Assembly (NCBI GenBank): GCA_964016885.1 | Contig: OZ024760.1 | Coordinates: forward strand, 18,228,001-18,292,000 | DNA: 64,000 bases | Origin: Eledone cirrhosa | Lineage: Eukaryota | Direction of reading: 5' to 3' | Made by a program: the position numbers and the translations under genes | The notes under the pieces: model-generated | What the model saw: the letters and a program-made list of their open reading frames with translations, nothing else | Told to the model about the DNA's origin: nothing | Databases searched by the model: none | Shown: piece after piece, positions 54,607-54,651 of the stretch | Layout of the letters: each line of letters opens with the position of its first letter | Position numbering within the stretch: position 1 is the stretch's first letter

Positions 54607-54651
54607 AGTCACTGAAGAGGTCACAGAGTGTGTGACGAAAGGACTATGACT
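54607..54651 (+). ncRNA. Minimal type I hammerhead fold, family C
   Basis: AGUCA-CUGAAGA-G-GUCACA gagug UGUGAC-GAA-AG ga CU-A-UGACU; stem I 5 bp, stem II 6 bp, very short stem III, CUA triplet. Confidence 0.7.

Follow-up and report, generated by a model that had tools for sequence, protein, structure and literature searches.

What is the lone 45-base motif at 54607-54651 of this Eledone cirrhosa DNA, how did it come to lie there, and could it cut itself? The DNA of the window (the whole stretch of 64,000 nucleotides analysed here) is repetitive, of animal type and rich in microsatellites. The SINE and other repeats in it presumably resemble octopus genome repeats. Eight hammerhead-like sites lie in the window: four of a family A, three of a family B, and the motif in question, here called family C. 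In summary, the motif is a genuine minimal hammerhead motif, which probably lies in a lone or 5′-truncated pseudo-LTR (pLTR) of a Penelope-like family other than A and B; cutting is predicted for the dimer only.

The hammerhead motif and its chance expectation

On sequence inspection, the 45 bases of the forward strand make up a letter-perfect minimal type I hammerhead motif with the following parts.

54607-54651, forward strand: the minimal type I hammerhead motif (family C), recognized from its sequence and by a descriptor scan with a chance test; the cut is predicted to fall between 54646 and 54647
54607-54611, forward strand: 5′ arm of stem I, AGUCA, forming five Watson-Crick pairs with the 3′ arm UGACU at 54647-54651
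54612-54619, forward strand: core positions C3 to A9, CUGAAGA (54612-54618), and an extra G (54619) between positions 9 and 10.1
54620-54636, forward strand: stem II, GUCACA/UGUGAC (54620-54625/54631-54636), with six Watson-Crick pairs, a closing G10.1-C11.1 pair and a loop of 5 nt
54637-54646, forward strand: GAAA core (54637-54640), helix III segment AGGACU (54640-54645) and A17 (54646), with a CUA cleavage triplet
54651-54658, forward strand: TATATATA stretch directly 3′ of the hammerhead, with the same letters as a putative TATA box described in a rotifer Penelope pLTR (PMC3846280); common in the window

All 11 stem pairs and the core are intact. The parts listed in an earlier note made from the sequence (the CUGAAGA/GAAA core, perfect stems I and II, and an extra G after A9) were each found where it had put them, and its predicted cut after 54646 is correctly placed, A17 being that residue. 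The G10.1-C11.1 pair is G54620-C54636; in an alternative assignment, G54619 could be G10.1 with G54620 bulged. In the folding prediction, the pair probability of stem II is 0.96-0.99. The same note had held that helix III cannot close alone, which agrees with a probability of about 1e-5 for the fold with a 1-bp helix III. GAAA-GGAC-UA might also be read as a loop followed by the 3′ arm of a complete helix III, by analogy with the metagenome contig L055; this reading was rejected because there is no GUCC arm upstream.

Might such an arrangement arise by chance? A strict descriptor, with at least five Watson-Crick pairs in both stems, had one match in the window, namely the family C site, and none in 60 Mb of simulated DNA (order-1 and order-3 Markov models of the window, 30 Mb from each). 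Analytically, about 6e-6 such motifs with stems of five and six pairs are expected per window. With a loose descriptor, three real sites were found against 0.002-0.03 expected per window. In a control using viral contigs, both stems were present in none of the 14 core-only matches. The family C hammerhead motif is confirmed as real. Its folding energy is unremarkable (z -1.37), and its lowest-energy predicted fold is not the hammerhead fold. Rfam gave no hits in the window at the gathering score and, at E up to 10, three hits in 54400-54900, none of which is a hammerhead. A match to the snoRNA sn2317 (54468-54534, forward strand; 28 bits against a threshold of 50, E 0.003) was rejected; it lies on a MITE-like fragment and is probably due to chance on AT-rich DNA.

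The motif is solitary, as had been noted, within the window: an 18-mer of the motif with up to 3 mismatches matched only once, and there is no second copy of 54550-54700. Global alignments with six copies of families A and B gave scores of -2 to -7, with agreement mainly in the core, which bears out that family C is unrelated to either. Thus, the proposal of a third family stands as far as the distinct sequence is concerned, but only one copy of it was seen in the window. On the same strand, the closest hammerhead-like sites lie at distances of 1.9 and 5.2 kb and have different helix III sequences. The family A copies occur as inverted pairs (35827-36112 and 59787-59876) flanked by TA repeats, the first pair being identical over 53 bases. 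This layout resembles that described for Penelope insertions, and the long helix III of family A includes a CUAG palindrome. The window also has four long tandem arrays (5355-7986, 8117-9089, 25851-30653, and 33384-34907, with units of about 46/92, 52, 31, and 60 bases, respectively), in which the hammerhead scans found no hammerheads.

The inserted unit and its repeat nest

The neighbourhood of the motif was found to be a nest of repeats, as follows.

54451-54549, forward strand: left part of a host MITE-like repeat, broken off at the start of the unit; it aligns to intact copies at 55077-55292 and 46399-46614
54541-54549, no strand assigned: the unit's target-site duplication (9 bp), left-hand copy
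54550-54815, forward strand: inserted unit of 266 bp carrying the hammerhead, with the 9-bp duplication on either side; the window has no further copy of it
54816-54824, no strand assigned: the unit's target-site duplication (9 bp), right-hand copy; together with 54825-54828 it is the remainder of the older SINE duplication
54829-55042 (about), reverse strand: SINE-like repeat, an earlier insertion at the same target, with a 19-bp duplication (54535-54549 plus 54825-54828, and 55043-55061)
55043-55080, forward strand: right part of the host MITE-like repeat, beginning with the duplicated target

The hammerhead begins 58 bases into the 266-bp unit and is internal, not terminal. Residues 54816-54828 are identical to 55049-55061 (13/13), and 54535-54549 joined to 54825-54828 restore the 19-bp target 55043-55061 exactly. 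By chance, the 9-mer duplication of the unit would occur at that edge with a probability of about 1e-4 to 5e-4, and the empty site is visible in both intact MITE-like paralogues. The simplest nesting order is the MITE, then the SINE with its 19-bp duplication, and then the 266-bp unit into the left copy of that duplication. Since the unit has its own target-site duplication and is the youngest layer of the nest, the hammerhead arrived as a mobile unit, and it arrived last. The term "ribozyme-bearing element" in the earlier note is therefore backed by the insert, its duplication and the empty-site paralogues. As an alternative, the SINE could be nested in a larger insert (54550-55042) that has a duplication of 15 bp; this was rejected because the duplication of the SINE itself is present on both sides of the SINE.

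Some further traits of the locus may be recorded. Beside the nest, a second SINE copy (55360-55581) has an exact 19-bp target-site duplication, equal in length to the duplication inferred for the SINE adjoining the hammerhead unit. The start of the unit (54551-54560) reads CAAAATGGCG, which I take to resemble the YY1 binding site consensus. Just 3′ of the hammerhead, an inverted repeat (54662-54705) of 13 bases, 85% complementary, surrounds a short AACC run. None of the inverted repeats found provides an outer stem I for the hammerhead.

Does the unit belong to a Penelope-like element? No Pfam match to a reverse transcriptase (RT) or a GIY-YIG endonuclease was found in 193 of the 290 candidate frames of the window (93 from 48-64 kb and the 100 longest of the 197 elsewhere, with frames overlapping 54701-54815 omitted). 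The same scan identified no host exon near the hammerhead and otherwise gave a borderline zinc finger and spurious-looking hits on repeats. The former is a lone C2H2 match at 49093-49164 of the forward strand, with 24.9 bits against a Pfam threshold of 25.2, and is perhaps a decayed LINE end. Since there is neither an RT or GIY-YIG match, nor an inverted partner as in family A or a tandem one, nor a second copy, it is from the architecture that I infer a Penelope parentage of the 266-bp unit. The length of its duplication lies within the 8-10 bp described for rotifer Penelope (PMC3846280), a range that is not specific to Penelope.

Relatives outside the window were also sought. Among the 24 sequencing runs listed, 18 contain part of 54549-54815; in four of these 18 the share is below 0.2, and they were left uncounted. 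At least 5 of 21 sampled words were present in 14 of the 24 listed runs, which leaves 10 rows with 9 organism labels from 8 studies after removal of the possible source study. These matches fit a repeat family in related species; the shared part may be other than the hammerhead, and orthologous single copies could also account for them. No RNA run is among the listed runs with parts of 54549-54815. A pattern scan of viral contigs found no relative. In metagenome contigs, a strict pattern had no matches and a looser one had 51, none of family C. One of the 51 is a canonical hammerhead matched via the 3′ arm of its helix III (L055), and one is weak (L038). The former, at 236-275 of the reverse strand plus a few bases upstream, is a canonical-looking type I hammerhead (stem I of 6 bp, stem II of 4 bp, stem III of 4 bp, and a GAAA loop) on a marine contig, 3′ of three tRNA genes, and it was not reported by Rfam at the gathering score.

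Helix III and the predicted dimer

Can two copies supply the helix III that one copy lacks? According to the available text of PMC4209133, animal Penelope-like elements carry minimal hammerheads at their ends, with a long helix II, a helix I of 4-5 bp, a palindromic helix III, a G10.1-C11.1 pair, and a conserved additional base that separates positions 9 and 10.1. These hammerheads are mostly single copies from truncated elements, and they show no cleavage as a monomer and low cleavage as a dimer (PMC4209133); the dimer model was confirmed in PMC6765202. A 2-bp helix III with a 2-nt loop occurs in 9 of 56 published motifs, the loop being AU in seven, UA in one, and CG in one (PMC4209133, Fig. 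S3). Animal hosts of this variant are Drosophila virilis, Marsupenaeus japonicus, Oikopleura dioica, and Adineta vaga (Cervera and De la Pena 2014, PMC4209133).

In family C, two AGGACU segments can pair head to tail (A-U, G-C, G.A, A.G, C-G, U-A). The G15.2-C16.2 pair can form, and the GA loop would self-pair only through tandem G.A. According to predicted energies, the in-register GA duplex has -1.7 kcal/mol versus -4.8 to -9.1 for the four Watson-Crick palindrome loops. GA ranks sixth of the 16 possible loops and is the most stable of the 10 that lack Watson-Crick and G.U pairing; of the four closing pairs, G-C suits it best. Moreover, (5′-GGAC-3′)2 is a known context of imino tandem G.A pairs (PMC5900564). 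Thus, the tandem G.A pairing between two molecules that the earlier note proposed has a geometry known from real chemistry, but the stability predicted for it is small.

The energy rank, the G-C closing pair and the GGAC imino context suggest that GA is a selected state. The retention of a tandem U.G helix in all three copies of family B suggests the same. Those three hammerhead-like sites, at 52728 (forward), 11516 (reverse), and 62476 (reverse), have a common helix III segment, AUAUGUAU, in which a dimer would form the tandem U.G; stems I and II diverge strongly among the three, and stem II is broken at 52728. Against selection, GA is one substitution away from two Watson-Crick palindromes, and it is included in an exact 6-base tandem repeat (54642-54653) that could have originated by slippage; the competing fold and the dimer energies given below count against it too. 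I lean towards GA being the loop of the family itself, a private change from a Watson-Crick palindrome being the somewhat less probable origin. A paper by Lunse et al. reportedly deals with dimer-cleaving Penelope hammerhead variants and may include a GA loop.

How well would the present copy work? The GA creates a second GACU (54642-54645), which is predicted to capture the 5′ arm of stem I in 52-67% of the ensemble. Two misfolded monomers come out 0.7 kcal/mol more stable than the double-hammerhead fold in the prediction, versus a preference of 1.0 to 8.9 for the dimer with Watson-Crick loops; these nearest-neighbour energies leave out the tertiary contacts of the core and serve as a guide only. 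The extra base is G in 1 of the 56 published motifs (Fig. S3), the consensus being H (PMC4209133), and G at this place in a viroid hammerhead has major detrimental effects on cleavage according to the available text of PMC3705267. No partner lies in cis, the dimer helix is weak and another fold competes with it; the present copy is therefore predicted to be weak or silent. The suggestion that family C is dimer-dependent agrees with the published class (PMC4209133) and with the inability of a single helix III segment to close, but the duplex is weak in register and the window has no partner of the same family.

The following course of events may be envisaged for the parent element. Two pLTRs on one transcript would pair their AGGACU segments head to tail to form one shared helix III. 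Each core would then cut after A17, releasing a unit-length RNA for reverse transcription by the RT and GIY-YIG endonuclease of the element. A short or prematurely ended cDNA of this RNA might be inserted at a staggered nick, which would leave the 9-bp duplication. A bolder idea is that the 266-bp unit represents a mini-element without coding capacity, derived from Penelope, mobile until recently and shared by several related species, that it dimerises via a family-fixed tandem imino G.A in place of a Watson-Crick palindrome, and that GA also inhibits the monomer, thus acting as a switch that would permit cutting only when two copies meet. I regard this idea as rather doubtful.

Origin of the unit and comparison with known systems

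Could the unit instead be a dispersed monomer of a non-LTR retrozyme, that is, of a small non-coding tandem-repeat family with a circular RNA and a Penelope RT acting in trans? Its 266 bp lie within the published monomer sizes, and dispersed monomers are described as common (PMC7229834; bioRxiv 10.64898/2026.07.22.740005). The hammerhead is internal to the insert, and no coding remnant is attached. However, no tandem copy of the unit lies in the window, and the described retrozymes, in the available text of these sources, mostly have canonical hammerheads and not the extra-base type with a 6-bp helix II, so that a retrozyme origin is unlikely. Retrozymes are tandem non-coding units derived from pLTRs (PMC7229834; bioRxiv 10.64898/2026.07.22.740005), and the retrozyme and pLTR readings therefore grade into each other. 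A less specific source, some other short retroelement with no Penelope link (SINE-like, as in the schistosome Sm-alpha type), would be compatible with the 9-bp duplication, which any target-primed insertion could leave, and with the lack of a Penelope protein in the window frames scanned. The hammerhead is nevertheless of the Penelope type, the 3′ boundary has no simple-repeat tail, and Rfam detected no RNA-gene head; such a source is very improbable.

It is just as hard to believe that the host has retained a Penelope-derived hammerhead as an active RNA-processing signal. The intact core and 11 stem pairs would suit a retained signal, as would the presence of parts of 54549-54815 in the runs of other organisms. 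But the unit is the youngest layer of the nest and has an exact duplication, so its youth explains the intactness; moreover, no host exon was identified nearby in the frames scanned, and the motif is predicted to be weak or misfolded. A mere chance arrangement of letters can practically be dismissed. The single copy, the ordinary folding energy and the lack of an Rfam hit would be expected of one, but the simulations and the analytic expectation speak against it, and features that had not been asked for (the extra base, G10.1-C11.1, the self-pairing helix III, and the insertion boundaries) agree with the known class. A hammerhead in a lone or 5′-truncated pLTR of a Penelope-like family thus remains the preferred reading.

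Minimal hammerheads at Penelope ends were described in 2014 and are massively widespread in animals, and a single copy adds little by itself. What is new here is the 266-bp insertion boundaries with the 9-bp duplication; such clean edges make the unit a usable seed for defining one more family. If GA proves to be fixed in that family, the rule for the dimer helix would no longer demand a palindrome but would admit any symmetric helix, and the reason why Penelope-type ribozymes stay weak could be tested cheaply. A literature search found no paper on octopus hammerheads. A 2026 repeat annotation of Octopus vulgaris reports 190 Penelope-like families covering 6.83% of the genome (PMC13282606); the available main text of this source has no occurrence of the word "ribozyme", and its supplement has none of "hammerhead".

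How does family C compare with the known systems? Like the animal non-LTR retrozymes described by Cervera and De la Pena 2020 (PMC7229834), it is non-coding, measures a few hundred bases and contains a type I hammerhead. Like the retrozyme motifs described in axolotl, it has a weak helix III and predicted dimer-aided cleavage, and dispersed monomers exist for retrozymes as well. Unlike retrozymes, the unit is single in the window, with no tandem array, and its hammerhead is minimal, not canonical, having a 6-bp helix II and an extra base in place of the helix II of about 4 bp and the loop 1-loop 2 contacts described for them. The (+) hammerhead of Chrysanthemum chlorotic mottle viroid, with its extra A10, also has an extra nucleotide between A9 and G10.1 (PMC3705267, PMC1636495), but the viroid helix III is long and works alone, and an extra G is strongly harmful there.

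In rotifers, the Penelope pLTRs are 193-218 bp in length, with target-site duplications of 8-10 bp and solo pLTRs (PMC3846280). Compared by published description only, the unit resembles the solo pLTRs of Adineta vaga (PMC3846280) in its size class of about 200 bp, its duplication length and its TATATATA stretch, and it differs from Adineta vaga Penelope in having no inverted pLTR partner or ORF remnant. No link to a Penelope ORF was found in the window frames scanned, and most of the published minimal hammerheads are likewise solo. As for the ribozyme, family C differs from the published minimal hammerheads of Penelope in its GA loop 3, found in none of the nine comparable published motifs, and in its extra G versus the consensus H. 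It shares with them the type I topology, the CUGANGA/GAAA/UH core with helices I and II, the extra base between 9 and 10.1 with G10.1-C11.1, a helix II of 6 bp and a helix I of 5 bp, a helix III predicted to form only between two copies, and the solo occurrence away from any ORF. Its G15.2-C16.2 pair is as in the shrimp and Oikopleura motifs, and its CUA triplet is as in the shrimp motif. The earlier note does not mention that Penelope hammerheads are known in print for just these two traits, an extra nucleotide and a helix III formed only by dimers, and most of the novelty of the motif is thereby removed. Family C would work like the published minimal hammerheads and, judged by its predicted structure, belongs with them.
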